DNA of 64,000 nt from Paludibacteraceae bacterium (GTDB lineage Bacteria > Bacteroidota > Bacteroidia > Bacteroidales > Paludibacteraceae): the NCBI GenBank assembly GCA_045599545.1, contig JAZRWG010000015.1, forward strand, positions 335 to 64,334, read 5' to 3'. How positions within the stretch are numbered: position 1 is the first letter of the stretch; each line of letters opens with the position of its first letter. A program made the position numbers and the translations under genes. Below, in pieces: positions 1,473-61,600 of this stretch. The notes below the pieces were generated by a model. That model did not search any database. It was not told where the DNA came from and worked only from the letters and a program-made list of their open reading frames with translations.

Positions 1473-2294
1473 TTATAACCGAAACTCAAACATATCATAA
1501 TTTGTATTACGGCAACTCATATCAAGCAAGCGGAAATCAATATTGTTGTACTCCATCACATTGTGAAAATGGTAATGTCCATAGCACCATGTTTTGAGAG
1601 GATGATTATTAAGTAAAATATACTCATAAATTTTATCCATCGTTGCTCGTTCTTTAATTAAATCTTCTTCTAAATTGGAGTCTATTGCAAGCCAATACTC
1701 AATTCCCTCCTTACAAATGGGCTCGCAAAAAGAAGGCGCAACATGAGAACATACTACATCTATTTTTATACCTTCGTTTGTTATTTCTTGCAACGCTCGC
1801 TCATTATAAACAGGGACCTCATCCTTCCAATAAAGATGCTGAGATTTTTCTTTCCCCTCCTCCAATGAACAAGCATGAAAACGAGCATATTGAACAGCCA
1901 AAGCCATCATTTTTGTTTGACGATTTACCCTATCAATACTAATGCCTCCGCCCACACAAAGAATAGTAAATCCTGCAACGGACAATATCGTATAATCAGG
2001 AACAGACTTTATATTCGAATAGTTTATTTTTTGTTCCGCAAAATAAGAGGGATCATCATGATTACCTCGCATAAAAACCAAAGTAAGATTGCGCTTATGG
2101 CACTCTCTATTAAGTTTCCTAAATGTTTGTTTGTAATATTCCTCACTCTCAAATCCCAGACCTACATCCCCGCAGAACACAAGAGTGGCATCCTGCAAAT
2201 CATATTGACGAAACCAACCTGTTAGTCCATCAAAGGCACCATGAATATCACCTATACAACATAGTCTTTTGCTATTTATCACAAGGTTATTCAT
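1473..2294 (-). CDS. calcineurin-like metallophosphoesterase
   Basis: 273 aa with GDIHG (res 15-19), CGDVG, RGNHDD and GHYHFH motifs. ATGA start/stop overlap with the upstream nucleotidyltransferase-like gene. Confidence 0.8.
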   Translation of the reverse strand: MNNLVINSKRLCCIGDIHGAFDGLTGWFRQYDLQDATLVFCGDVGLGFESEEYYKQTFRKLNRECHKRNLTLVFMRGNHDDPSYFAEQKINYSNIKSVPDYTILSVAGFTILCVGGGISIDRVNRQTKMMALAVQYARFHACSLEEGKEKSQHLYWKDEVPVYNERALQEITNEGIKIDVVCSHVAPSFCEPICKEGIEYWLAIDSNLEEDLIKERATMDKIYEYILLNNHPLKTWCYGHYHFHNVMEYNNIDFRLLDMSCRNTNYDMFEFRL

Positions 2295-2965
2295 AAAGCA
2301 AGTATAGACATAATTATATCTACTCTATTTTCTTCGCCATAAGGTAGTACGCATTCTATTTCTTCCCGAATATTGGCTCTACTTAACAATGACGCAAATT
2401 GTTTTTTCAAAAAATCACGCAAGATTGGTTCTTCTTCAAGACAACGTTCTTTAAATTCCGGACAATAATTTAAGACATAGATGATATCTTCAAAATCATG
2501 AGACACACGCAAATCACTGCCCCCACGCGAAAGAACTGCATCCAATTTAGTGGCAATATAATATGTCACCGGTAGTATATAAATTGTTTTCCCCGAGGGC
2601 AATTGATAAGGTTCTTTATTCTTAAATCCAGGACGATACCAGCGATTACTAAAGCCTAATATATCTTCATCGTCCGGCATAATATCCACAATAATATCTT
2701 TATACACCCACCTACAAATGGGAGCAGAAGGACGAATATCATTCGTGAAATGATGTTGACGAAGTTTTTCTTCAAAAACAGCATGTTCATGATAGGACAT
2801 CACCTCTACAACACAATCCACATCATTCGTCGGTCGTGCATCTTGCGCAGCAGAATCTGTCGCATAAAGTCCACAAACAGCACCCCCAACGAACACTACA
2901 TGTTCATTCAGATCTTTTAAGCCTTCCGCAATATTTTGTATGCGTTCAACACTCGTCTTTTCCAT
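2291..2965 (-). CDS. pol-beta-fold nucleotidyltransferase, AbiEii/DUF1814-like
   Basis: The track ORF is 2291..3001; the internal ATG at 2965 (MEKTS...) is preferred. NTase signature VFVGGAVCGLY-x12-TNDVDCVVEV (GG...DxD), and C-terminal KLDAVLSRGG...HDFEDIIYVL as in AbiEii-type toxins. Confidence 0.55.
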   Translation of the reverse strand: MEKTSVERIQNIAEGLKDLNEHVVFVGGAVCGLYATDSAAQDARPTNDVDCVVEVMSYHEHAVFEEKLRQHHFTNDIRPSAPICRWVYKDIIVDIMPDDEDILGFSNRWYRPGFKNKEPYQLPSGKTIYILPVTYYIATKLDAVLSRGGSDLRVSHDFEDIIYVLNYCPEFKERCLEEEPILRDFLKKQFASLLSRANIREEIECVLPYGEENRVDIIMSILAL

Positions 2966-3479
2966 AACTCTCAATAAATTTATGTAAAGCGGACGCAGCA
3001 ATCTCCCGTTCGCGCACTCGCCCTATACGAAGCGCATCAACAATAACTAACAATTTGTATAATTCCTCATCTTTATCCACTATTTGAGGAACATTAGGGC
3101 ACAAAGGAACTATCCCTTGTCCGCGAATCGCCCCCAAACGACTTGGCCAGACATAAGCATCCGAACCGAGAGCCAATTGTTCTTTTAACGGAGAGGCACT
3201 GATATAGGTGGGCACACCACGCATTACGCGCCCTACCTCGACAGGAAAAGCATAGCGCAAACCATACACAAGGAACTCCTCTAAAGCAAGTACATTAACC
3301 TTTTGCTTTTTACAATCCACTAATTGAGCCACACGAGAACGCGACAAACTATCGCTGATACTTGAAATACTAACAAGAAGAGATGATGCCAATTCCCTAT
3401 ATGACATAGAGGCACCGGATGATGTGATTTTCTTTAATAAAACCAGAATATCCAATGGGCGTAATTCACAGTTTTTCAT
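2946..3479 (-). CDS. winged-helix DNA-binding protein, AbiEi-like regulator/antitoxin candidate
   Basis: 177 aa. N-terminal wHTH-like segment LDILVLLKKI...MSYRELASSLLVSISSISDSLSRSRVAQLV plus an uncharacterised C-domain. It overlaps the NTase gene and is first in the three-gene operon. Confidence 0.5.
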   Translation of the reverse strand: MKNCELRPLDILVLLKKITSSGASMSYRELASSLLVSISSISDSLSRSRVAQLVDCKKQKVNVLALEEFLVYGLRYAFPVEVGRVMRGVPTYISASPLKEQLALGSDAYVWPSRLGAIRGQGIVPLCPNVPQIVDKDEELYKLLVIVDALRIGRVREREIAASALHKFIESYGKDEC

Positions 3480-3495
3480 ACAATTATATCATAGC

Positions 3496-3519
3496 GTTCG
3501 GCGTTCGCGAACAGCGAAC
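3496..3519. promoter_or_regulatory. 24-bp palindrome GTTCGgcGTTCG.CGAACagCGAAC, candidate operator
   Basis: 20 of 24 positions are self-complementary, with a perfect 10-bp core GTTCGCGAAC at 3503-3512. It lies between the -7 box (3536-3543) and the ATG (3479) of the wHTH gene. Confidence 0.5.
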
Positions 3520-3535
3520 ACCATCAATTCGGGTG

Positions 3536-3567
3536 CAAAGGTACGGCTTTTTTTTGATATGTGCAAA
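3536..3567 (-). promoter_or_regulatory. Bacteroides-type promoter (TTTG-20 nt-TACCTTTG) for the wHTH/NTase/phosphoesterase operon
   Basis: -7 box at 3536-3543, -33 at 3564-3567, 20-nt spacer. Part of a 97-nt module duplicated at 4981-5078. Confidence 0.75.
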
Positions 3568-3570
3568 TAA

Positions 3571-3603
3571 AAAAGCGAAAATGTTGGATTTTTCGCTTTT
3601 TTT
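3571..3603 (-). terminator. intrinsic terminator hairpin (AGCGAAAA / TTTTCGCT, 8-nt loop, flanked by A and T runs)
   Basis: Stem 3574-3581 / 3590-3597. On the minus strand it is followed by TTTTTTATTT. It sits between the ATPase gene with its repeat array and the next promoter. Confidence 0.65.
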
Positions 3604-3608
3604 AGGTT

Positions 3609-3686
3609 AGAGGCGGAGAGGCAGAAGGGCGGAAAGGCGGAGGGGACGGAGAGGCGGAAAGGCAGAAGGGCAGAGAGGCGGAGAGG
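3609..3686. repeat. tandem octamer array, about 10 x GCRGARRG
   Basis: Begins directly next to the TAG stop (3687-3689) of the ATPase gene. Period 8. Confidence 0.9.
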
Positions 3687-4892
3687 CTAGTATAAGAAAC
3701 CAAATGCCCACAAAGGAATCTTATGACCTATAGCGGAATCAATATCGTCGGCCGCGATATATGCTTGTTCATTCCCCTCTACTTGTTCATAGTTTTTATC
3801 AGACCCGCCTACCTCTATTGTAAATTGTCGATCTACTAAAAAATCACCCTTATGATAACCCGCGTACTCCACGCGATGCCCGGCAGATGCTATTTGATTT
3901 ATAAAGAATGTTTCGCGTGCAGTACCTATTTCGGGGGTAACCGGACTAAGAGCATAAAGCAGATTAGGATTATTTAGATATATTTTGTCAGGTTTCTGCA
4001 AATCTCCAATACTATCAATATCAGCAAACAATCTGATAAGCAAACATGCCTCTTCTAAATGCTTAAAGTATGTAAGAGTAGTGTTGCGAGCAATACTGAT
4101 ACTTCGGGACAATTTGGCAATATCTACATCATACGGAACCATTTGTGAGATTACTTGCAATAGTGCTCTCACTGCCCGTGTATTACCGACATCCAGCTTG
4201 CGATACCGCGTAAGCTCAACATCTATCACATAATTCACCATATTTTCTAATAATGCATGGTAAACCTTTTTCCCTTCAAAATAATAAGGATAATAACCTA
4301 CCGACAGATACTTATGGAAAAATTCCGCCGGATGGCATTTAGAGCGAACTAATGAACAAAATTCATTGGGAGCAGATAATAAATTCTCCAAGCGGATAGC
4401 TTCTATTTTTATACCGGCTTCCAATCGAAGGAACTCGCGGAACGACAATCCGGGAATATCATAAAATAGTAGACGACGACTCAAATCTGCCTCTCCGTCA
4501 TTGAGTTGCAGCAAGGAACTGCCGCTAAGAACAATTCGTAAATCGCGATGGCGGTCATATAGATCTTTTATTTCTGTACTCCACCCATCATATTTATGGA
4601 CTTCGTCTATAAAGAGATGTGTTCCTCCTTTCCGAGCAAACTCATCGGCAACCTCTGTAAGGGTGTGCGTGGCAAAGTAACCCGTATCAGCGGAACAATA
4701 CAACACGTGGCGGTCCTCCGGCGAATAATGTAAACGAATGTATTGTTGCATAAGCGTGGTCTTTCCTACTCCTTTTGGACCACGTAATGCAATTAAGCGA
4801 GCATCCCACTCAATAGTATTCATCATTTCCCGAATATATCCCATTGGAACGGAGGATATATAATCATCGTGTCTTACAAAAAGTTGTTCCAT
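3687..4892 (-). CDS. AAA+ ATPase with DUF4143-like C-terminal domain (AAA_14/DUF4143 architecture)
   Basis: 401 aa. Walker A GPKGVGKTT and Walker B LFIDEVH. The C-terminal half ends DFLVD...FTIEVGG...IPLWAFGFLY. It is a paralog of 6512..7711. Confidence 0.85.
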   Translation of the reverse strand: MEQLFVRHDDYISSVPMGYIREMMNTIEWDARLIALRGPKGVGKTTLMQQYIRLHYSPEDRHVLYCSADTGYFATHTLTEVADEFARKGGTHLFIDEVHKYDGWSTEIKDLYDRHRDLRIVLSGSSLLQLNDGEADLSRRLLFYDIPGLSFREFLRLEAGIKIEAIRLENLLSAPNEFCSLVRSKCHPAEFFHKYLSVGYYPYYFEGKKVYHALLENMVNYVIDVELTRYRKLDVGNTRAVRALLQVISQMVPYDVDIAKLSRSISIARNTTLTYFKHLEEACLLIRLFADIDSIGDLQKPDKIYLNNPNLLYALSPVTPEIGTARETFFINQIASAGHRVEYAGYHKGDFLVDRQFTIEVGGSDKNYEQVEGNEQAYIAADDIDSAIGHKIPLWAFGFLY

Positions 4893-7914: not shown

Positions 7915-9975
7915 TTACTTCGGGTCGGTGGAGTAGAAATAGTCAGAAATGGTGGTGACACCATTATTCGTATCTACCGTTTGACGAATCTTACCCGTAG
8001 TGGAATCATAGGTCTTCTTCGAAAGCTTGCGAGAAACCCAAGCGCCATCTGTCCAGTTGAACTCCTCGGTATAAACCTGTTGACCCTTGCTATCATACTG
8101 ATAAGCGCACTTTTCCGAATTATACCAACCGGAATCATTATAAGGATAAACCGACTCGTCGTAACGCTCCACAATATAGAGCGTATCCTTTCCACTCTGT
8201 AAATAGTGATTATAACGGAACATGCCTGTCCAACACCAATGGTTATAATCCCACTTATAACTAATACTCTGTGTCTCTTGCGATGTGCTCTTAAGCGTTT
8301 CCGACTTACTCAAGCCTTCCCAATCTTTGGGATATTGGGAATTGCTATTCCACTTATAGGAAGCGGTCATTACTTGCTGACAATTAAGATAACCATATTC
8401 GCTCTTATTTGAACCCGAACGAATGCCATTATTCCACTCATAACGAGCATCTAACGTCTTCTTATCCCCACAACCGGGCTCATATTCGTACACGCGCTCC
8501 CAATCGTGAGTCCAATCCCCCGCATCCCACACCCAGTGAGTGGATAAAGTTTGACGATTGTCCTCATTATATTCATAAGTAAATCGAGCGGAACCCATCT
8601 TCAGTCCCGGAACGGAATCATAATACGCCTCCTCAATCTTATTGCCACGCTCATCGTAATTGAGCACCGTCCACGTTTTTTGGGTAATATACCATTCTGT
8701 GCCGGTCCATGTTTCGTTATAGGTCGCCACACTCACCCCATCCTTATATTCATTACGCACGCGTGTGTAATCGACCCAATCGGGATCATTGAACTGCTGC
8801 GTTAATGTTTCTGTCAGTTTACCGCCCACATAGGTATAAATCGTCTGATAACCCACCCAAACGCCATCCTCTAACTTCAACGAAGAAGTCTTAATGAGCG
8901 TTGAGCCGGAATAGGTATTCTCATTCTTCTCGCTCTCTATCCACTCACGATTCGTGTCGTCCCACGTGTAATTCGTGACAGATGCTGCTTTACCACTCGA
9001 ATAAGTAGTTCGAGTTCGAGACTGTCCCTTATAGTGGTCTTTACTCCACGTATAACTTTCTTCCAGTGTTTTATTGGCGGTAGAACCATCATATTCCGTC
9101 ACCGTCTTACTTGACTCAACCCAGACTTGATTGGTCTTATTCCACGAGAAAGTCTCCTTCATCGTCACACGGTTATTGGCATTGAACTCCTGCACGGTCT
9201 TAGAACCATTGGTACACTGTCCCCCACTCCACTTGGAGTAGTTCTCGGTGTTGATCTGATTACCTTTAGAATCAAACTCCCAGACTTGGCGCTTGGATAC
9301 TTGCCAATCGTTATTCGCCCAATCATAAGTTTCATCCAAGGTCTTGAGTTTGTTGGGAGAATAAATATATTCCTGAACCGTACGCGACGAGCCCACCCAC
9401 TTGCCTATAGTCGTATTATAAGACGAATAATAATCCGTTCCGACCGCCGTACCTTGGCTATCAAAATGATATTCATACAATGTGGAATAGGTCATCTTTC
9501 CACTTACCAATTTAGACGAGCGAACCATGGTTTGCTTGCCTCCCGTATAACCATATTCGGTGACTGCAGAAGGATCCCACTTTAATTGGGGAGCATTCCA
9601 TGAATACTGAATCTGTGCCGTCTGTTGGTCAGAGGCATTCCACACTTTCTCTGTACGACTCGCACTATTTGCCGTCCAATCATTCGCAGTGGCATCCCAT
9701 TTGAGAGTAAGGGTCATAACCTCGTTCTTGCCCTTATCATCATAAACCTTGTAGGTATTAGAAGTGCCCTTTTTCACGCCATTCGTCCACTGATAAACGA
9801 CGGTGTTAATCTCTTTGTTGTTATCGTCATAGAAATGTTGCTCCAACTTGACATAGTTACCCGCTCCATCCTTGGTAACAATACTGTCCAATAGAGGCGT
9901 GGCCGCTTGTATGGGTGTAAGGGAGTAGAGGAATAGAGGGGTAGAGAGTAATATAAAGAGGTATTTTTTCATCAT
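7915..9975 (-). CDS. secreted 686-aa Trp-rich repeat protein (YD/beta-hairpin-like repeats)
   Basis: Signal peptide MMKKYLFILLSTPLFLYSLTPIQAA. About 14 degenerate 40-48-aa units such as TYDWANNDWQVSKRQVWEFDSKGNQ, FSWNKTNQVWVESSKTVTEYDG and YTWDDTNREWIESEKNENTYSG. 4-nt overlap with the upstream gene. Confidence 0.6.
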   Translation of the reverse strand: MMKKYLFILLSTPLFLYSLTPIQAATPLLDSIVTKDGAGNYVKLEQHFYDDNNKEINTVVYQWTNGVKKGTSNTYKVYDDKGKNEVMTLTLKWDATANDWTANSASRTEKVWNASDQQTAQIQYSWNAPQLKWDPSAVTEYGYTGGKQTMVRSSKLVSGKMTYSTLYEYHFDSQGTAVGTDYYSSYNTTIGKWVGSSRTVQEYIYSPNKLKTLDETYDWANNDWQVSKRQVWEFDSKGNQINTENYSKWSGGQCTNGSKTVQEFNANNRVTMKETFSWNKTNQVWVESSKTVTEYDGSTANKTLEESYTWSKDHYKGQSRTRTTYSSGKAASVTNYTWDDTNREWIESEKNENTYSGSTLIKTSSLKLEDGVWVGYQTIYTYVGGKLTETLTQQFNDPDWVDYTRVRNEYKDGVSVATYNETWTGTEWYITQKTWTVLNYDERGNKIEEAYYDSVPGLKMGSARFTYEYNEDNRQTLSTHWVWDAGDWTHDWERVYEYEPGCGDKKTLDARYEWNNGIRSGSNKSEYGYLNCQQVMTASYKWNSNSQYPKDWEGLSKSETLKSTSQETQSISYKWDYNHWCWTGMFRYNHYLQSGKDTLYIVERYDESVYPYNDSGWYNSEKCAYQYDSKGQQVYTEEFNWTDGAWVSRKLSKKTYDSTTGKIRQTVDTNNGVTTISDYFYSTDPK
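9915..9950. repeat. octamer array (GTAGRGGA family) inside a CDS
   Basis: gtgtaagggagtagaggaatagaggggtagagagta. It encodes LSTPLFLYSLTP of the signal peptide of 7915..9975. Confidence 0.8.
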
Positions 9976-10874
9976 AACGCTAACAATCCTAAACGAGAGA
10001 CTTTATGCTCGTAGGCGAAGGCGTAATAAACGCGCACGCCGAAATCTAAATAATGTATATTCGCTTTATACGATTGCGTGTAAGGAGCCATTGTCAATTG
10101 CCCCTCCTGCCACCTACCTATGCCCTCATTGGAACCGGAGTTCATGCGGAAACAGTCAAAACGCATAAACGCTTGCAAACCCAGCCGATGACGCTCCGCC
10201 ACCTGCCACTCATATCCCACTTGTCCTGCCAAATAGAGATGAAACTTAATATCCGTCTTAGGTCCCTTCTCCATCGGCGTGACGGGCATATCAACAGAGA
10301 GTTTAGACACAGGAATATACATATTCACCACCGGATTATCCATTACCGCCTCTTGCCAATGGATGAGTTCACAAACACCAACAACACCTACATTAAACGT
10401 CACATGATACAGACTCATCGCCAACATAAAAGGCACTTCCAGTTGCAGTTTATTATAGTTCTCCCGCCCCGCCCAATGAACGGTGTCAATAACCTTATAC
10501 CCATTAGGCGAAACCAACGACATAACCGAGGTCGAATCCGCAAGCGTGAACGACGAGGAGGAATAAGTAGCCCCCAATCCAATCAACGGACCAAAATAGA
10601 ACCGTTCGGGAGTCGGCGCATAAGACTCACGCAAATCTATCTTACGAACAAGGAACTGACCTCTATACACCATATCCAAACCAACACTCATGCCCGGCTG
10701 CGCCTTGAGCGGTCCAACTAAAGTGTTATGCGACATGCCGCCACGCACACCCACTTCTACCAAGTCCCAACCCTTGCGTGGCAAAAAAACAGAGGACTTC
10801 TGCTTTAACTGCGCACTCAACGTAGTGGAAAGTGAGAGTGAGAGTAAGAGTAATATGTACGCGAGGCGCTTCAT
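9972..10874 (-). CDS. outer-membrane beta-barrel protein (OMP_b-brl_2-like)
   Basis: 300 aa with signal peptide MKRLAYILLLLSLSLSTTLSAQ. Alternating hydrophobic strands throughout with aromatic-rich strand ends (GVRVYYAFAY). 4-nt overlaps on both sides. Confidence 0.55.
   Translation of the reverse strand: MKRLAYILLLLSLSLSTTLSAQLKQKSSVFLPRKGWDLVEVGVRGGMSHNTLVGPLKAQPGMSVGLDMVYRGQFLVRKIDLRESYAPTPERFYFGPLIGLGATYSSSSFTLADSTSVMSLVSPNGYKVIDTVHWAGRENYNKLQLEVPFMLAMSLYHVTFNVGVVGVCELIHWQEAVMDNPVVNMYIPVSKLSVDMPVTPMEKGPKTDIKFHLYLAGQVGYEWQVAERHRLGLQAFMRFDCFRMNSGSNEGIGRWQEGQLTMAPYTQSYKANIHYLDFGVRVYYAFAYEHKVSRLGLLAL
10829..10855. repeat. hexamer array (GTGAGA / GTAAGA) inside a CDS
   Basis: It encodes LLLLSLSLS of the signal peptide of 9972..10874. 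Confidence 0.7.
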
Positions 10875-11554
10875 TTAGTCGTTAGTTTTTGACCATCTAT
10901 GGTGTAGAAGGTTTCGTTACGTTGGATATAAATCATGCCGTCCTTGAATATCTTTTGGGTGTAGGGGAGTAGAGGAGTAGAGGTGTAGGGTAAGTCCGTG
11001 CGAACGGCAGGGAAACCACGCATAATCGTGGTACACATATACGAAGCCTCCGCCTTATCAGCATTCACCGTGACTTCAGCATAGTATTTCTGCCAATCAT
11101 CATTCAAACCAATCGCCAACGTAAAGCCCTTGGAAACTAAAATATCTTCATTAACATCCGCGTCTCTATGCACTCCCACATCGTCTATCGGTTCCACAAT
11201 CTGATACCACCGGACACAATCTTCTGATACCGGAGGAGTCAACCACCCTTCGGACAAAAGTTGGTCTTTGTTGACCATAAACAGCCAATCGTAAATACGA
11301 TCCACCGGTGCCTGATAAACCTTACAACGCGGTTCAAAAATAGCCTCCAATTCGATATTATCATCCACATCCACCGTGCGGACACGATTCGTGTCCCCGT
11401 CCGACCACGCCACAAAGCGATAACCGGGCAGAGGCTGAGCCTCAATGCGGACTTGTTCGCCACAATCGAACGAGTCCTGCACGACTTCCTGCGCCGTCAC
11501 TTTAGTGACAGTGAACGTGAGAAGTGAGAATAATATGAACGCGAAGCGTTGCAT
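10871..11554 (-). CDS. secreted protein with an N-terminally incomplete InlB-B-repeat-like domain and a conserved C-terminal tail
   Basis: Signal peptide MQRFAFILFSLLTFTVTKVTAQ, then FDCGEQVRIEAQPLPGYRFVAWSDG...ELEAIF (B-repeat-type GY.F..W motif). C-terminus QKIFKDGMIYIQRNETFYTIDGQKLTTK. Confidence 0.55.
   Translation of the reverse strand: MQRFAFILFSLLTFTVTKVTAQEVVQDSFDCGEQVRIEAQPLPGYRFVAWSDGDTNRVRTVDVDDNIELEAIFEPRCKVYQAPVDRIYDWLFMVNKDQLLSEGWLTPPVSEDCVRWYQIVEPIDDVGVHRDADVNEDILVSKGFTLAIGLNDDWQKYYAEVTVNADKAEASYMCTTIMRGFPAVRTDLPYTSTPLLPYTQKIFKDGMIYIQRNETFYTIDGQKLTTK
10961..10991. repeat. octamer array (GTAGGGGA family) inside a CDS
   Basis: It encodes YTSTPLLPYT near the C-terminus of 10871..11554. 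Confidence 0.85.
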
Positions 11555-11558
11555 TTTT

Positions 11559-11585
11559 GGGGAGTAGGGGTGTAGGGGAGTAGGG
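11559..11585. repeat. octamer array (GTAGGGGA family), intergenic
   Basis: ggggagtaggggtgtaggggagtaggg, between 10871..11554 and 11604..12146. Confidence 0.85.
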
Positions 11586-11603
11586 TTAGTAATTAATGGT
11601 TAG

Positions 11604-12146
11604 TTATTCGTTTTGAGAGAGGATGACAACCTTACCCATAGAGGAGTCGGACGGAGTCAACTTGATGCTCAGTTTCTTCACCTTGAAGGTTGCTACTAAT
11701 TGCATATCTGCCGTAGGACTGACGGTAATCGCCATTTGATCCGAATACAGATCCTCCGTGCCGGCATAATACCAACCTACGAACTCATAGCAGTCGTCCG
11801 TAACCTTAGCCATAGCCACAACCGACTCGCCCCAAGGTACATTGGCATCGAAAGCTCCTTCGGCACTTAAACTATCTACTACCGTGCCGCCTAACGTAGC
11901 CGAGAAGGAGACCTTGAGATCGTTGTGAGCGAAGATGGCCGTTAGGAGAGTATCCTTCTGCAAATCAATCTGACGTTGAGCCTGAGTCACACCATCACTC
12001 CACTGAACGAAGTGATAACCGGCATTAGGCTGAGCCTCAATGGTAACTAATTCACCGCAATCGAAAGTAGCGGTAGTGTCCTGAACTGTTTGTGCATTGA
12101 GCATCATGCTCGTTGCGCAAAGCGCAATTAAAAGAATTTTTTTCAT
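11604..12146 (-). CDS. secreted protein built from InlB-B-repeat-like domains (partial + complete + partial)
   Basis: Signal peptide MKKILLIALCATSMMLNAQT. Then FDCGELVTIEAQPNAGYHFVQWSDG...TAIF, a complete unit LKVSFSATLGGTVV...CYEFVGWYY...LVATF, and finally only the first strands KLSIKLTPSDSSMGKVVI. Confidence 0.55.
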   Translation of the reverse strand: MKKILLIALCATSMMLNAQTVQDTTATFDCGELVTIEAQPNAGYHFVQWSDGVTQAQRQIDLQKDTLLTAIFAHNDLKVSFSATLGGTVVDSLSAEGAFDANVPWGESVVAMAKVTDDCYEFVGWYYAGTEDLYSDQMAITVSPTADMQLVATFKVKKLSIKLTPSDSSMGKVVILSQNE

Positions 12147-12874
12147 TGTGGTTTGAAAATAATTACTTTACCCATCGCTGCATCGTCCACATGCAAGTGA
12201 ATCGTGTGCTGACAAACGGGTTGAACCAAGCGAACCGAACAACCTATATAGCGGTCGGTTTCGACGGATTCGAGATTAATAATATTGATATAATTAGCTT
12301 TCTTGGAATGATTCGAGGTGGCAGTCCAATAATAACCGACTTCACCCTCTTGCATTATGTCCACACCATCACGGTAACCCTGATAGGGCAAGAAAACGGC
12401 ACCCTTTGCCGAAACAGCAGCCCAATCAGCCACCGCTTGATTCACCGAAATAGTAAACGTATCCGGCAAAAGGACAAGACCCTTTTGATTGTCTATCATA
12501 GCCTCGCCTGCAAGTTTCGCTGCATTGGGACGGGAGTTCAACAGATATGTCCACTCCTCCGCCGTCAAGGTACGCCAAGGCTCTTCGTCGGGCTGCACCG
12601 GCTGGAGCGTTCCCCAATCGAGGAAATCACCGGCATAAGCACCGTTGGCGCGCACAAAAGCAACGCCGTAGAAGTCGGTAACACGATAACTCGACTTACC
12701 ACTCCAACCAAAAAGGTGGAAATCCGATTCGTCCGGCAGAACGGCAGGACGAGTGAAATTCTCGGGCGCAAAAGTAACCTGCTCACCATGGCTATTAATG
12801 GTGAACACATTCGCGGCAGCGTGAACACTCACGCATGCGCAAAACAATAGTATTTGCAGTACCCAGCGCTTCAC
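12143..12874 (-). CDS. secreted protein with a FISUMP/DUF1566-like domain
   Basis: The track ORF starts at GTG 12892; the GTG at 12874 (VKRWVLQILLFCACVSVHAAA signal peptide) is preferred. Motifs FGWSG, DWG, WRTLTAEEWTYLL, FLPYQGYRDG, GYYWTAT and GCSVRLV resemble the Fibrobacter-succinogenes-major-paralogous domain. Ends with HTIHLHVDDAAMGKVII. Confidence 0.5.
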   Translation of the reverse strand: MKRWVLQILLFCACVSVHAAANVFTINSHGEQVTFAPENFTRPAVLPDESDFHLFGWSGKSSYRVTDFYGVAFVRANGAYAGDFLDWGTLQPVQPDEEPWRTLTAEEWTYLLNSRPNAAKLAGEAMIDNQKGLVLLPDTFTISVNQAVADWAAVSAKGAVFLPYQGYRDGVDIMQEGEVGYYWTATSNHSKKANYINIINLESVETDRYIGCSVRLVQPVCQHTIHLHVDDAAMGKVIIFKPQ

Positions 12875-12903
12875 TATAAGGGACAATTGCACAAAATAGC
12901 ACG

Positions 12904-12935
12904 CAAAGATACTACTTTTTTATGATATATGCAAA
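12904..12935 (-). promoter_or_regulatory. Bacteroides-type promoter (TTTG-20 nt-TATCTTTG) for the five-gene surface operon
   Basis: -7 box at 12904-12911, -33 at 12932-12935. Confidence 0.7.
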
Positions 12936-12948
12936 TAAATTTTGATTT

Positions 12949-13554
12949 TTAAAACAAAAAGGTATCTACCAAAGCGTGAATAGACCTTTTCCCGTCATTA
13001 ACGAGCACAATATCCGCTTTTGAGGCGCACTCCTGCTCGCTCATCTGCGCCGCTATACGAGCACGCACCTGCTCTTCGGTGACGTGGTCGCGCGCCATGG
13101 TGCGAGCGATGCGAATATCCTCCGGTGCGGTGACGCAGATAGTGAGATCACATAAATCATCAAGGTGCGATTCAAAGAGAAGGGCGGATTCAAGGAGTAG
13201 AGGAGTAGAGGGGTAGAGGGGTAGGGTTTGCTCGATATCCTTGCGGACGGCAGGGTGAACAAGGGCGTTGAGACGACGCAAGAGGTCTGGGTTAGAGAAG
13301 ACGCGCTGCGCCACGAGGTCGGTTCGATAAGTATTCCCCTCATAGACATCTGCGCCCAAGAGCGCCGAGATGACTGCCTTGAGTTCAGAAGACTCCACGA
13401 TGAGGCGCTTGGCCTCCTTATCCGTGTCATAGAGCACGTAGCCGCGCGAAGCTATTTCGCGCGCAATCGTGGATTTGCCACTGCCTATGCCGCCGGTGAT
13501 GCCAATGATTTTGGGGGTAGAGGGGTATGGGAGTAGAGGAGTAGGGTTATTCAT
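12949..13554 (-). CDS. coaE: dephospho-CoA kinase
   Basis: IIGITGGIGSGKSTIAREIASRGYVLYDTDKEAKRL P-loop start typical of CoaE. It carries two repeat-derived segments (NPTPLLPYPSTP and LPLYPSTPLLLES). Confidence 0.9.
   Translation of the reverse strand: MNNPTPLLPYPSTPKIIGITGGIGSGKSTIAREIASRGYVLYDTDKEAKRLIVESSELKAVISALLGADVYEGNTYRTDLVAQRVFSNPDLLRRLNALVHPAVRKDIEQTLPLYPSTPLLLESALLFESHLDDLCDLTICVTAPEDIRIARTMARDHVTEEQVRARIAAQMSEQECASKADIVLVNDGKRSIHALVDTFLF
13194..13227. repeat. octamer array (GTAGAGGR) inside coaE
   Basis: It encodes LPLYPSTPLLLES. Confidence 0.85.
13514..13547. repeat. octamer array (GTAGAGGR) at the coaE 5' end / rlmH 3' end
   Basis: It encodes NPTPLLPYPSTP at the CoaE N-terminus and reaches the rlmH stop region. 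Confidence 0.85.
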
Positions 13555-14934: not shown

Positions 14935-16148
14935 AATAAGGGTAAAACTTTTTCCAATTGCGTGGAGTGCGAACCCTTGATGAGGATGCGCCGTCCTTGC
15001 AACGGATGCGTTTGAAGATATGCAATAAATTGATCTACATTATCAAAAATAGGATACGGAGCCGTCGTAGCCTTGTACTCCTCACCAATCAAGAAAACAC
15101 TGTCCTGCTTCATCTCCAGCAGCGCGTTCACCACGTTCTGATGCTCCTCGTGACTATAGTCTCCTAACTCGCGCATGGCACCTAATATATAGGTGTAGGG
15201 GAGTAGGGGTGTAGGGGAGTAGGGTATCTGGTGTTTGGTGTCCGGTGTCTGGTTGAAGGCATGGATGGCGGCTTGCATGGAGGTAGGATTGGCATTATAA
15301 GCATCCACTACGAGTGTGTTATGTTCCGTTTGAACGAGTTGCGAACGGTGGTTCGTAGGTTCGTACGCGCGAATAGCCGCCAAAGCAGTATCTTCCCCTA
15401 CCCCAAAGAACTTGCCTACCGCCATCGCAGCCGCAATGTTCTCCGCGTTGTAGTCACCCACCAAATGCGTACCCGAGGGCATGGGGACACGCCTGTAGCC
15501 TATCGCCTGTCGCCTGTCGTCTGTCGCCTCCTCAAGCATCTGCTTGAGGTAGTCGTTATCCTCATTGATAAAGATGGTGCCGTTATGCGCCACGAGGTAA
15601 TCGTAGAGTTCGCGTTTGGTGCGTTGCACGCCCTCGAACGAACCAAAACCCTCTAAATGCGCCCGACCCACGTTGGTAATCAGACCGTAATTGGGTTCAG
15701 CAATCTCCACCAGTTCGGTAATATCGCCCGGGTGAGAGGCTCCCATTTCAACGATTGCCATCTCGTGCGCGCGCGTTATAGATAATAAGGTGAGGGGCAC
15801 GCCGAGCGAGTTATTGAGGTTACCCTGCGTGTAATAGAGGTTATACTTGGTTTTGAGCACCGCGGCCGTGAGTTCCTTGGTGGTCGTCTTGCCGTTCGTG
15901 CCGGTGATTCCGATAATAGGCAATCCTAACTCGCGCCGCCAAGCACGGGCTAAGTCCTGCAATTCGCGGAGGGCGTTCTCACCCTTAATGACATAAGCCG
16001 CACCGTCTTGGATGGCTTGGTCTACAAACTGATTGCCGTCGAAATGCTCACCCTTGAGTGCCACAAAGACACAGCCGCGAGTGACCTTGCGGCTGTCTGT
16101 GGTGACGGTGATATATTCTTTATTTCTTATTAGGAAGTTCCAATCCAT
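14931..16148 (-). CDS. murF: UDP-N-acetylmuramoyl-tripeptide--D-alanyl-D-alanine ligase
   Basis: TTDSRKVTRGCVFVALKGEHFDGN and GITGTNGKTTTKE motifs. It contains the repeat-derived segments DDRRQAIGYRRV and YSPTPLLPYTY. Confidence 0.9.
   Translation of the reverse strand: MDWNFLIRNKEYITVTTDSRKVTRGCVFVALKGEHFDGNQFVDQAIQDGAAYVIKGENALRELQDLARAWRRELGLPIIGITGTNGKTTTKELTAAVLKTKYNLYYTQGNLNNSLGVPLTLLSITRAHEMAIVEMGASHPGDITELVEIAEPNYGLITNVGRAHLEGFGSFEGVQRTKRELYDYLVAHNGTIFINEDNDYLKQMLEEATDDRRQAIGYRRVPMPSGTHLVGDYNAENIAAAMAVGKFFGVGEDTALAAIRAYEPTNHRSQLVQTEHNTLVVDAYNANPTSMQAAIHAFNQTPDTKHQIPYSPTPLLPYTYILGAMRELGDYSHEEHQNVVNALLEMKQDSVFLIGEEYKATTAPYPIFDNVDQFIAYLQTHPLQGRRILIKGSHSTQLEKVLPLL
15193..15225. repeat. 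octamer array (GTAGGGGA) inside murF
   Basis: It encodes YSPTPLLPYTY. Confidence 0.85.
15491..15528. repeat. heptamer array (CCTGTCG family) inside murF
   Basis: It encodes DDRRQAIGYRR. Confidence 0.85.
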
Positions 16149-29069: not shown

Positions 29070-29966
29070 ATGAAAATCGGTGTTTTTGATAGTGGATTTG
29101 GAGGTTTAACCATCCTACAAAGCATCCGTAAGGTGCTGCCCGAATATGACTATCTCTATTTAGGAGACAGTGCCCGTGCGCCCTACGGTACGCGCTCGTT
29201 CGAGGTCATTTATGAATACACCTTGCAGGCCGTTCGTTACCTCGAGGCGCAGGGTTGCAGGCTAATCATTATTGCGTGCAACACAGCCTCCGCCAAAGCG
29301 TTAAGAACTATTCAGCAACGCGACATCGACCCCGCTAAACTGCGCGTTTTGGGTGTCATCCGCCCCACCGTCGAAGCGGTAACTTTTTTAAACTTTAAAC
29401 TTTCAACTTTAAACTCTAGACACATCGGTGTCCTCGCCACTCCCGGCACGGTGAGCAGTGGCAGTTACTTGATTGAGTTGCAGAAGTTGGATCCGAACAT
29501 CAGTGTCGTTCAGCAGGCCTGTCCGATGTGGGTACCGCTCATTGAGGGCAATGAGATCAACTCGCCCGCGATGGACTTTTTCATTAAGAAGTATGTGGAT
29601 CTGTTGCTTGTCAAGGATCCCGAGATTGACACCATCATCCTCGGCTGCACCCACTATCCCTTGATAAAGGACAAAATAGAGGCGTATTTACAAACCTTAC
29701 CCCCCTACTCCTCTACTCCCAATCCATCATTCCATCATTCAGCGCAGCGGTTCAATCCATCATTCACCCGGCCCCAAATTATCGCCCAAGGGGAAATTGT
29801 CGCCGGCAGCCTCAAAGACTATCTAACGCGTCACCCGGAGATAGAGAAAGAACTGAGCCGTGGCGGTCAATGCGACTACCTCACGACGGATAATTCCGAT
29901 AAGTTTGAGGCTTCTGCCTCATTATTCCTTTCCGAACCCATCCACGCCAACCAAATCGAACTGTAA
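29070..29966 (+). CDS. murI: glutamate racemase
   Basis: IGVFDSGFGGLTIL, IIACNTASA and ILGCTHYP motifs. Two repeat-derived insertions (FLNFKLSTLNS and PPYSSTPNPSFHHSAQRFNPSF). Confidence 0.92.
   Translation: MKIGVFDSGFGGLTILQSIRKVLPEYDYLYLGDSARAPYGTRSFEVIYEYTLQAVRYLEAQGCRLIIIACNTASAKALRTIQQRDIDPAKLRVLGVIRPTVEAVTFLNFKLSTLNSRHIGVLATPGTVSSGSYLIELQKLDPNISVVQQACPMWVPLIEGNEINSPAMDFFIKKYVDLLLVKDPEIDTIILGCTHYPLIKDKIEAYLQTLPPYSSTPNPSFHHSAQRFNPSFTRPQIIAQGEIVAGSLKDYLTRHPEIEKELSRGGQCDYLTTDNSDKFEASASLFLSEPIHANQIEL
29381..29416. repeat. heptamer array (AAACTTT / CAACTTT) inside murI
   Basis: It encodes FLNFKLSTLNS. Confidence 0.85.
29698..29768. repeat. composite array (CCCTACTC octamers, then ATCCATC/ATTCATC units) inside murI
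   Basis: It encodes PPYSSTPNPSFHHSAQRFNPSF. Confidence 0.8.
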
Positions 29967-58588: not shown

Positions 58589-58650
58589 CGGAAAGGAGGA
58601 TAGGCGGAGAGGGAATCCCTACTCCCCTACTCCTCTACTCCCCTACTCCC
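58587..58650. repeat. two abutting octamer arrays (GGCGGAAAGG family, then CCCTACTC family)
   Basis: 58587-58613 is purine-rich. 58617-58650 is ccctactcccctactcctctactcccctactccc, ending 4 nt from the stop of the giant gene. Confidence 0.85.
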
Positions 58651-58654
58651 AACG

Positions 58655-61600
58655 TTACCGCAGCTCTGCTCCGGTAGCGTTATACACGCGTCCGGCATTG
58701 ATGAGGTAGATATTGCCGTTGAAGAGCAACTTCTGGGTCTTATCCATCGGCAGGTTGTATTGCTCCATCTTACCATCGAAGGAAGTCGGCGCATCAGCAC
58801 CTTTCTGCTTGAGTTGCAAGAAGAAGCGGTCCTTATACTCACCCTTTTCGAGCGTAATGGTAGCGGACATCAAATCAAGCGGTGTGATCGTTTGCTCAAA
58901 GGCATCGAACAACTTAACCTCCAGGCCTTCAAGGCTCTGCTTGAGAGCAATGTCGTAGGTGCCGTTAGCCGTTACCTTTACATTCAGCGGAACGAGTTCG
59001 GTGTTGAGTGGCAACGTGTTACCGGCATAGAGTACATTTTCGCTGATAGAGGCTATTTGAGCAGCGTTTTCGGTAATTTTGGTCATATCTTGACTAAAGT
59101 CAAATCCGGCAGTACTCTTCTCGTCCAATTTAACGAATGTGCGGTCAAGTTGCTCATTGTTCTGCATCAATTCGATAGTCAATGTTCCTCCCTTGAAGTT
59201 AGAATCCTCAACATAGTGAGCAGCAACGGTTGCCGGAGTAGTTTGCGTATAAGGCACCCACGTGATGGTTCCCTCATACTGAACCATATAACTATGGAAG
59301 GACTGATAATTAAACTCCTTACCATCGTGAGGCTCATACTTATGCCCCTTTTCGTTATTTACGTTATAGGTATACAAGAAGTTCGGGAACTTGGTCTGCT
59401 CGCCATAAGGTTGATCCTCAACAACAGACTGTGCTTTAATATTATTATAACTCTTCGGACCGATAACGCGCCAGTTACTATCATAAGCCTCGCGGTCTTC
59501 CGGAGTCTTAATGGTACACCTCATGGATTCGCATGTAAACTTACTATGAGCCTCATCCACAGTATTAGTCATCTCAAATCCGGCATATAAGGACGGGAAG
59601 TAGAGACGTTTCAAGGCTTTATTAGACCCGTCTTTGGCTTTAATCGTTGGCCAGTCTTTAATGGACGACCTCTCAAAGAAGAGGACATAACCTTCACCGG
59701 CATACATCGTTTCGTTTTCATACATCCACTCCCAGAAGCCTTCGGTTTCTTGGAACCAACCCTTCTGAGCACGGAGGTCACCACGATAACGCATGATACC
59801 CCAAGTACCATCTAGAGCAATACGATTTTCGTCTAAGGTGATATAACCTTCCACACCGAAGATATCACTGATTTGGCAATCGAACGGCAAAGAAATCCAG
59901 TATTGTGAATAGGAGGTCTTATCCGTTGATCCATCAATTTCCATGACAAACATCACGTGCTGCAAACTGGATATCTTGTAAGACTCTGTGCCTCCATCCT
60001 TAATTCCAACTTGAACTTGCTGTACATCGTCATCCTCTGTACGGATAAAGAGTACGTCCGAGTTAATGGACATATCACTATTGTATGTGCCCGCAGTCGG
60101 TTCCCAAGAGGAGATTAGACGGTTCCTCTTGAAGTCGTACGAGATACGGATAGCATAAGCAGATTCGCCGGTTGTAGAACCTTTACCTAAAACGGTTAAT
60201 TGGTTGGGTGAATCTTTCTTTTCCTCACCGGTTTGGTCATCAATCTCATAACCGAGCAAGTGAGAAGTTTGTCCGTTGAATACGCTCTTTAGGGTTACTT
60301 TAGATTCACTTTCTGCATCAGCCACTTTGACATATACCACTTTCTCATAAACCCAGTCACTATTATCCGCAAACTTACTTAAATTGAGAGATTGGGCTTC
60401 GTTAAGCGGTTGCGTTGCGTCAGCATCTGCATACACGTTGTTACCATATACATTCAAGAAGTCGTTGCTATTGGAAGCACCTAAGATAGCGCGTTTGAAG
60501 GCATTGGTCGTAGGCTCGTAACTGAAACGAACATTTCCTGCGGCAACGGTTCCGTCGGATTGTGTGAGAGCGTCTGCTCCGATGGTCAAGCTGAGGTTGC
60601 TATTGTACTCATTAGCCACCTTAGCAATCACATTCTTATCCGTGCAGTTGCCCGAATAAACCGTCCAATAGTAACTATAATCCTCTGCGGTATTAGCACG
60701 AGGAGTGAACTTATGCATCTTCGTGTTATCATCCAACTCACTTCCGCTTACACCTGCGATGACATAGTAGTCGCCCTCATATAATTTGGGAGTAGTGATA
60801 TCATCGCTACCGAGGTCTGCCACATAAATGCCTGCTTGGCTAAAGCCTGTCAATGTCTTAACAACCGCACCGTCCTTGAGTAAACGAACGGTACCGCCCT
60901 TATAGGTTACATCGCCATCTTGAGGAGCAAAGAATGAGAACGTCTTGCTTGTGGATTCCGTTGTAACGATATTGGACAAATAGGTGTTACCATTCTTCAT
61001 GGAAATCTCGATCTGGTAAGCACCTGATTCGCAAAGACCGGTTCCCGGTGTAGCAACACGATATGCGTCGGAAGCAGAGTTATAACCAATGGTATAACAC
61101 ATATCAACTTTCGTTTGCATATTATCGGTTTGGCGCCATTTAGCATCATTGCCACCCAACATATTTATATTTTCGCCATACCAGAAGAGGAAATTGATAT
61201 TACCTTCACCATCTACAATCTTCGGGATAGTAACAGAGTAAATACCACTTTCGCTATTGTAAGTCATAGAAGCATCTTGTGCCTTGTCGCCATCGGTTGA
61301 CCAGAAGTGTACATGAACGAGGTCGGTCTTCGTCCAAGATTGCTCTGTTGTTTCCGTCTTCGCTTGCAAGGTAATACCGGTAGCCACATTCACTTTCAAG
61401 TTCTTGGTAACAGAATAATCAGTATTCTTATTGCGATAAGTAACAATTACATTATCCGTTCCTTCCGAATTACCTAAAACGATAAGGTTCGTTCCGCTCT
61501 GTGTGAATTGTGCATGGCTATTTCCGGTAACGGAGATTTCTAAATCGTCCAAAGTCATACCTTCGCGGAGAGTAACCGTCGGAGTAATCTTATATTGGCG

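Follow-up and report, generated by a model that had tools for sequence, protein, structure and literature searches.

A B-repeat domain split between three signal-peptide-bearing proteins of gut Bacteroidales, and its possible reassembly by fold complementation

In chaperone-usher pili of the FimA/PapA type, the incomplete beta fold of one subunit is completed by the strand or strands of its neighbour, and the subunits line up as an ordered tip-shaft-base fibre. Some subunit types are donors only, some are acceptors only, and some are both. A similar division of labour may exist in the locus described here, a minus-strand operon of five genes, A to E, arranged head to tail in a 64,000-nucleotide stretch of a Paludibacteraceae bacterium genome (GenBank assembly GCA_045599545.1, contig JAZRWG010000015.1, positions 335 to 64,334; called the window below). 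Genes A, B and C carry a B-repeat domain that is cut at both of their junctions. A and B each end in a short segment that corresponds to the first two strands of a repeat (the donor tail), and B and C each begin, after a signal peptide, with the remainder of one (the acceptor head). A would then be donor only, C acceptor only and B both. The parts differ, however: chaperone-usher pili use a single N-terminal donor strand, an immunoglobulin (Ig)-like fold, a periplasmic chaperone and an usher, whereas here there is a two-strand C-terminal hairpin and a B-repeat fold. Pfam and NCBIfam searches of A-E at E values up to 1 gave no match to an usher or a PapD-like chaperone, which places the locus outside that class.

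The type V pili of Bacteroidia (FimA/Mfa1), the class to which this bacterium belongs as well, are also assembled by C-terminal strands that fill the groove of the next subunit, and their tip, shaft and anchor genes are adjacent (PMC4789730, PMC5789003). Their subunits have a FimA/Mfa fold, are made as lipoprotein precursors and polymerise after proteolytic loss of an N-terminal strand, none of which is evident here: with Pfam and NCBIfam, A-E show no FimA/Mfa family match, and they have no conserved lipobox cysteine, their cleavage sites being of the A-x-A/Q kind, so the locus is not a type V pilus either. Chaperone-free donor-strand filaments (archaeal threads, cannulae, TasA) resemble the proposed system in self-assembly by strand insertion without a chaperone or usher, and some are covalently reinforced, but they are homopolymers with other folds, whereas here there are three different proteins whose domain grammar is fixed and whose joints would each have a disulfide. 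In the engineered SpyTag/SpyCatcher pair, the adhesin stalk domain CnaB2 is cut near one terminus, and the resulting truncated domain and short peptide reassemble and are then covalently locked. That pair is man-made, uses one strand and closes with an isopeptide bond, whereas the present one is natural, has a two-strand hairpin and would be closed by a putative disulfide.

The repeat domain itself is common in single-chain InlB-type B-repeat adhesins (PF09479 Flg_new and PF18998 Flg_new_2), and B is colinear with a stretch of such an array. These adhesins share the polarity of the locus, with a functional module, a repeat stalk, and a C-terminal tag or a type IX secretion system (T9SS) sorting domain. 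They hold all of their repeats in one polypeptide, whereas here two cuts fall inside repeats, a separate signal peptide precedes every piece, and the set includes an additional, barrel-like protein, D. A literature search found no description of a split B-repeat or of fold complementation between B-repeat stalk domains. Fold complementation is known from several pilus classes; the B-repeat version would be new.

On re-reading, the three open reading frames had the order and sequences given in an earlier note on this DNA. The note had described A and B as ending in the first strands of a repeat and the following proteins as beginning with only the remainder, and this division held. Two details were amended: the stop directly after strand 2 (A ends in MGKVIIFKPQ and B in MGKVVILSQNE) and, as a small correction, the mature heads, where 8-9 residues (QTVQDTTAT and QEVVQDS) precede FDCGE. 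Both B and C score above the gathering threshold of PF18998 Flg_new_2 (23.6 bits), at 51.1 and 28.1 bits. Residues 21-75 of B fall on positions 13-72 of this 73-position model and residues 25-75 of C on positions 15-71, and because the matches begin at positions 13 and 15, both heads lack the domain's N-terminal part. The middle repeat of B is a complete single-chain domain with strands 1 and 2; the two heads are not.

The missing part was located by profile alignment. A set of 1,279 ordinary repeats was taken from long single-chain proteins, and 300 complete ones formed an hhalign template of 67 columns, against which the 24 junctions of 12 loci were aligned. The heads alone fell on columns 16-66, the tails alone on columns 1-14 (probability 74%, P=2.7e-5), and tail and head joined on columns 1-66 (probability 99.9%). 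The note had left open that the heads might be complete without extra strands; Pfam and hhalign both found their N-terminal part absent, in the hhalign template columns 1-15. The locus has what fold complementation generally involves: the acceptor fold is incomplete, and the donor contains a segment homologous to the part that the acceptor lacks.

Such a result could follow from an arbitrary choice of repeat register, but ordinary arrays start with strand 1 and finish with ...AEF (P0206 is an example), which argues that the domain naturally starts and stops where Pfam places its boundary; the heads are therefore truly deficient and the tails truly surplus. Positions 8-155 of the B-family profile are colinear, without a break, with residues 569-699 of the tandem-repeat protein P0229, which comprise the remainder of repeat n, the whole of repeat n+1, and strands 1 and 2 of repeat n+2. 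A weak match, to the single-copy InlB B-repeat structure 2y5p, has the same register. A sequence search of the PDB returned only this weak match and chance matches to antibodies.

The tails are conserved to the same degree as the domain cores. Among homologues of B, tail residues K157 and G171 are invariant, and L159, L163, D167, M170, V173 and I175 are kept in at least 90%. When tails were scored against a generic repeat hidden Markov model (HMM), most aligned to positions 1-15 at -2 to +5 bits, with 900 C-terminal peptides as the empirical null. A Pfam scan of tail and head joined by hand, which is a weak test, gave no extension onto profile positions 1-12 and no rise in score.

The double split is present in 17 loci, in which identity in A falls to about 30% (29-33% in the distant cassettes). 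Since 17 independent loci show it at both junctions, the split is far above chance, and the question of whether orthologous operons keep it, raised in the earlier note, is answered. The A-B-C-D order and both breaks are found in a close clade (L001, L003, L009-L011, L013) and in eight distant loci (L004, L006, L008, L014, L042, L102, L111, L114), where A is either about 30% identical or an entirely different protein. L016 keeps both breaks, on a contig that ends ahead of any D gene, and in L089, which lacks a D gene, the B/C break is retained. At every complete locus the tails equal the heads in number. Among public genomes the nearest relatives, 92% identical in B, are Paludibacteraceae assembled from gut metagenomes of horses and other animals.

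The cut point is constant across loci while the number of whole repeats and the donor modules vary. At most loci B has a single whole repeat, but in L111 and L114 it has five. In length, all 16 homologues of B found have 173-186 amino acids (aa), save for one partial sequence of 109 aa; all homologues of C have 191-237 aa and most orthologues of A 218-249 aa. Across the loci C is about 206-264 aa long, except in L016 and L089, where it is reduced to head, linker and tag (121-124 aa). The donor module is FISUMP-like in most loci. In L114, A has a lectin-like module, one complete repeat and the tail, and the position after VRLVQ, where the tail begins in the window's A, is where the complete repeat starts. 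The L111 donor consists of repeats only, and in L102 an unrelated protein, at least 526 aa long, takes the donor's place. The L016 donor (2018-3937; 639 aa) has cohesin, HYDIN/ASH-type Ig-like and DUF1573 domains and ends with the same cysteine and hairpin tail, which suggests that one connector can be carried from one tip module to another, unrelated one.

A second pattern links the two sides of each break. A cysteine at position 22 of the repeat unit (in FDCGE and similar motifs) is present in 34 of 34 acceptor heads (17 of 17 in B and 17 of 17 in C), compared with 20 of the 1,279 ordinary repeats (1.6%). All donors have a cysteine as well, either at position 35 of their last repeat (DDCYEF and similar) or, where the module preceding the tail is not a repeat, 1-3 residues ahead of the first tail strand. 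Position 35 is cysteine in 28 of the 1,279 ordinary repeats. Mature B has exactly two cysteines, at the 22- and 35-type sites, in 15 of 17 loci. The two sites seem to lie at opposite poles of the domain, since they flank a strand of 7-8 residues in the model of B. The head cysteine of the short C proteins is without a partner in its own chain, because C of L016 and of L089 holds no other cysteine.

Unsplit arrays indicate which cysteines might pair. When position 35 of one repeat was compared with position 22 of the next, both were cysteine in 9 cases, only position 35 in 0, only position 22 in 2 and neither in 967 (Fisher p=2.5e-20), and the other two pairings fitted worse. In one array a repeat without the position-35 cysteine is matched by a next repeat without the one at position 22. 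Single-chain B-repeat arrays in L119 (2-2395) and L135 (1197-5027 and 5447-7579) have both cysteines in nearly every repeat, which suggests that their consecutive stalk domains may be stapled by disulfides. For the split system, the same rule predicts a staple exactly and only at the two chain breaks, where C227 of A would pair with C30 of B and C119 of B with C31 of C. Of the indirect evidence, this rule speaks most strongly for an arrangement in which the last domain of the donor would sit against the acceptor head as one repeat does against the next.

AlphaFold2 was run on B alone (mean predicted local distance difference test, pLDDT, 88) and on C alone (mean pLDDT 78). The B head is modelled as four strands at pLDDT 81-91, and the full repeat of B as eight strands, including strands 1 and 2, at pLDDT 91-98. 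The B tail is left as a coil whose pLDDT falls from 77 to 52, and its insertion into B itself is not predicted. The C head has four strands as in B (pLDDT 84-88) and is followed by a middle domain of mixed alpha/beta structure and by the tag, a low-confidence beta meander. When the models of B and C were compared with the PDB by Foldseek, no match was informative; the best E values were 0.0075 and 0.06.

These results are consistent with one fibrillar surface adhesin whose three parts, A, B and C, are secreted separately and joined outside the cytoplasm by fold complementation, a reading to which we give a probability of roughly 0.6. Each protein would be exported by Sec. The break falls in the loop after strand 2, so that the upstream protein would end with a two-strand hairpin of about 20 residues without an independent fold. 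The hairpin of A would complete the B head and the hairpin of B the C head, one tail to each head, and a normal repeat would be rebuilt at each joint. Insertion would set the donor's last domain against the acceptor head, as for consecutive repeats in a single-chain array, and the cysteine pair across each break would probably lock the joint by a disulfide. A would be the lectin-like tip, B the repeat stalk, and C the base with a C-terminal sorting or anchoring tag; D would probably serve export or anchoring. The layout is read as one fibrillar adhesin because its polarity (tip, repeat stalk, C-terminal anchor signal) is that of the single-chain relatives. Folded proteins are transported by the T9SS (PMC9251779), and export of a pre-assembled complex by this route is conceivable. 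Support for strand complementation is indirect and comes from the tail and head numbers, the single-chain AlphaFold2 models, and the cysteine pair that flanks the breaks.

Several observations weigh against this reading. Scored singly, the window's two tails reach -0.9 and -2.3 bits against the generic repeat HMM and are not individually significant. The AlphaFold2 models cover B alone and C alone, and the heads are modelled fairly confidently without a donor, so a stable truncated domain is possible. The cysteine statistic for unsplit arrays rests on few arrays from two or three loci, whose repeats are not independent. Bacteroides is not known to have the classical DsbA/DsbB pair, and periplasmic disulfides in these strict anaerobes are uncertain. 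No signal that would take A or B across the outer membrane is recognisable, and C of the window has no T9SS type A sorting domain (TIGR04183 / PF18962, cutoff 23 bits).

The main rival, which we consider unlikely, is that A, B and C act separately: the heads would be stable truncated domains, and the hairpins at the C-termini would serve as flexible extensions or as sorting signals, read for instance by D or by an export machine, and would have no place in the fold of the neighbour. The donor-free models of the heads and the missing outer-membrane signals of A and B fit this view, as do the restriction of D-like genes to split cassettes (hmmsearch of all open reading frames of the loci) and the fact that C-terminal signals are common in Bacteroidota secretion. 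It does not account for tails that are homologous to exactly those columns that are absent from the heads, for the equality of tail and head numbers, for a cut point that is fixed while all else varies, or for a rare cysteine pair on both sides of the breaks that is paired as in consecutive unsplit repeats.

If the hairpins do insert, the question becomes which head each one fills. Tails of A and B resemble each other more closely within a locus than across loci (permutation p about 0.001), and the same holds for the heads of B and C (permutation p about 0.003), as would fit a shared interface. Recent gene conversion between the window's two heads or two tails was considered and rejected, as the synonymous differences are scattered and identical runs are only short. 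Because tails are alike within a locus, and heads likewise, B-to-B joining is possible. B could then be a shaft subunit that polymerises head to tail with a disulfide at each joint, A a donor-only tip cap, C an acceptor-only subunit that ends the fibre at the surface with its anchor tag, and D an outer-membrane partner. We regard this polymer as doubtful; if it exists, it would be an unrecognised Bacteroidales pilus class, with hairpin-complemented stalk repeats and no chaperone, usher or sortase.

The same likeness of tails and of heads, with a sequence specificity that permits other pairings, would also allow the B tail to fold back into the B head and the A tail to enter the C head. This seems improbable. 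AlphaFold2 leaves the tail of B uninserted, as described above, and since the tail follows the full repeat without a linker it would emerge at the pole distant from the head. The cysteine rule fits the last repeat of a donor to the next head and not a head to its own following repeat, and the five-repeat B of L111 and L114 makes a fold-back less likely still.

Decay of an ancestral multi-repeat gene into pseudogene fragments has in its favour that giant unsplit relatives exist, one of them in the same genome. The B profile gave 23,187 matches among 1.8 billion representatives, and because the best 150 of these are almost all 700-6700 aa long, a single chain seems to be the normal context of a B-repeat. 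The earlier note doubted decay, and its doubt is borne out by the conservation of the 17 loci, the homologue lengths, the substitution rates and the RNA-run contigs. Both breaks are identical in the 17 loci down to about 30% identity, which refutes decay; the ratio of nonsynonymous to synonymous substitution rates (dN/dS) for A, B and C against three relatives is 0.12-0.29, a sign of purifying selection; every piece has its own signal peptide; and the ATGA overlap of A and B is typical for coupled genes. Contigs from an RNA run, a kind of data in which some DNA may be present, extend over A, B, C and D in part. The note had also named a single fused gene in relatives as a sign of decay, and no fused A, B or C was found among the homologues retrieved. 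Decay is thus very improbable. A frameshift or stop read-through that fuses A-B-C, to which a run of seven A (A7) after the ATGA overlap might point, was rejected on junction anatomy and is hardly credible, since the stop of A precedes the run, the relatives' spacers at both junctions are 6-52 nucleotides (nt) long and in differing frames, and a fusion would hold two hydrophobic signal peptides in mid-repeat.

If A, B and C do form a three-part adhesin, some gut Bacteroidales assemble a fibrillar adhesin from exchangeable parts, with lectin-like, cohesin/Ig-like or repeat-only tip modules on the same connector, and surface adhesins could evolve by mix and match. It would also be a natural counterpart to engineered split-domain protein glues, made of a connector of about 20 residues and an acceptor of 50 residues, maybe with a cysteine-pair lock.

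Features of the locus are listed in Table 1. A consists of a signal peptide, a lectin-like module and the donor tail. Its match to PF09603 (Fibrobacter major paralogous domain) has 23.4 bits (E=8e-5), below the cutoff of 33.9, and that to TIGR02145 has 12.9 bits, below the cutoff of 41.65. A is at best a distant relative of the Fibrobacter succinogenes major paralogous domain; some homologues of A do match PF09603. The later start of A is backed by orthologues, which begin at the VKR/MKR position.

Table 1. Coordinates of the split-repeat operon and its surroundings (positions in the window).
Feature	Position	Strand	Remarks
Donor tail of A, CQHTIHLHVDDAAMGKVIIFKPQ	12146-12214	-	B-repeat strands 1-2; conserved cysteine before the tail, codon 12212-12214
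Acceptor head of B	11922-12089	-	B-repeat columns 16-66 only; junction cysteine in FDCGE, codon 12057-12059
Single complete B-repeat of B	11679-11921	-	Donor-side cysteine in DDCYEF, codon 11790-11792; from Pfam and AlphaFold2
Donor tail of B, KKLSIKLTPSDSSMGKVVILSQNE	11607-11678	-	From homologue conservation and profile alignment
Acceptor head of C	11327-11491	-	Junction cysteine in FDCGE, codon 11462-11464
Gene A	12143-12892	-	249 aa as listed; likely true start GTG at 12874 (MKRWVL...)
Gene B	11604-12146	-	
Gene C	10871-11554	-	
Gene D	9972-10874	-	300 aa; signal peptide; barrel-like
Gene E	7915-9975	-	686 aa; signal peptide; W/Y-rich repeats
B signal peptide, MKKILLIALCATSMMLNA/Q	12090-12146	-	K-rich, hydrophobic and A-x-A/Q parts; conserved in 16 homologues; putative cleavage site
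C signal peptide, MQRFAFILFSLLTFTVTKVTA/Q	11492-11554	-	Read from sequence; putative cleavage site
C middle domain	10961-11326	-	Mixed alpha/beta (AlphaFold2)
C C-terminal tag, ...QKIFKDGMIYIQRNETFYTIDGQKLTTK	10874-10960	-	Same tag terminates many giant single-chain B-repeat proteins
A stop / B start overlap ATGA	12143-12146	-	Read from sequence
B-C spacer	11555-11603	-	49 nt; one octamer repeat copy inside (11564-11587)
Promoter-like site 5' of A, between A and coaE	12904-12933	-	TTTG 12930-12933, TAtcTTTG 12904-12911; read from sequence
(GTAGRGGN)n copies	10961-10992, 11564-11587, 13197-13228, 13533-13548, 15195-15226	+	
(GTAGRGGN)n copies	29701-29716, 58617-58646	-	

A Foldseek search of the PDB gave no fold match for the middle domain of C with E below 0.06. 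The 25-residue tag that ends C, K-x-[LI]-x-[ND]-G-Q-[IL]-[YF]-I-[LI]-R-...-Y-T-[IL]-x-G-Q..., ends 33 open reading frames of the loci (L028, L034, L039, L055, L152, L164 and others), most of which encode giant B-repeat proteins; the giants P0229 and P0235 end with it too. One of the 33, in the window itself, encodes a protein of at least 1,781 aa with Flg_new and Flg_new_2 repeats (58655-64000, minus strand). No Pfam or NCBIfam model describes the tag. It occupies the place that a T9SS sorting domain has in other relatives, and from this position it could act in sorting or anchoring as a signal not yet described. C of the distant cassettes has a T9SS type A domain below threshold (17.9 bits in L004, 21.5 bits in L111).

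D and E have no family match in Pfam or NCBIfam. From its sequence character D looks like an outer-membrane barrel. It was also considered as a general partner of the tag, an idea that was dropped, as no D-like gene lies beside the giant tag-bearing proteins. The W/Y-rich repeats of E are about 45 residues long; E has 831-838 aa in L001 and L003 and is in the operon only in the close clade.

All five products, A-E, begin with a signal peptide, and in B, C and D cleavage is predicted at A/Q. Simple DNA repeats, hexamers or octamers, code for the hydrophobic core of this peptide in D (LLLLSLSLS), C and E (LLSTPLFLYSLTP) (10812-10874, 11492-11554 and 9900-9975, minus strand), and the first 17 residues of the signal peptide of D in the window are identical to those of C in L003. 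New signal peptides at the breaks may have been born by expansion of simple repeats.

The ATGA overlap of A and B is shared with the close clade (L001, L003, L009-L011, L013), whereas the distant cassettes have a spacer of 29-49 nt. The start of B (12130-12146, minus strand) reads ATGAAAAAAATT, with the A7 run directly after the overlap, and contigs that cover the run show a constant length. Upstream of A, the promoter-like site fits the -33/-7 promoter consensus of Bacteroidetes, TTTG / TAnnTTTG. The stretch around it (12903-12942) has a metagenome contig depth of 130-630 and numerous loose ends at 12903 and 12936-12942, which marks the promoter-like element as widely repeated.

The window also contains a G-rich repeat of period 8, (GTAGRGGN)n, with seven copies, compared with 0 in 20 shuffles. 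Some copies lie in frame within genes: in C (PYTSTPLLPY), in the gene for dephospho-CoA kinase (two copies), and in that for a MurF-like ligase. Relatives lack the insert at the corresponding sites, as does the kinase of L013. Over the copy in C the metagenome contig depth is 780-1220, compared with about 5-15 around it, so the repeat is extremely abundant.

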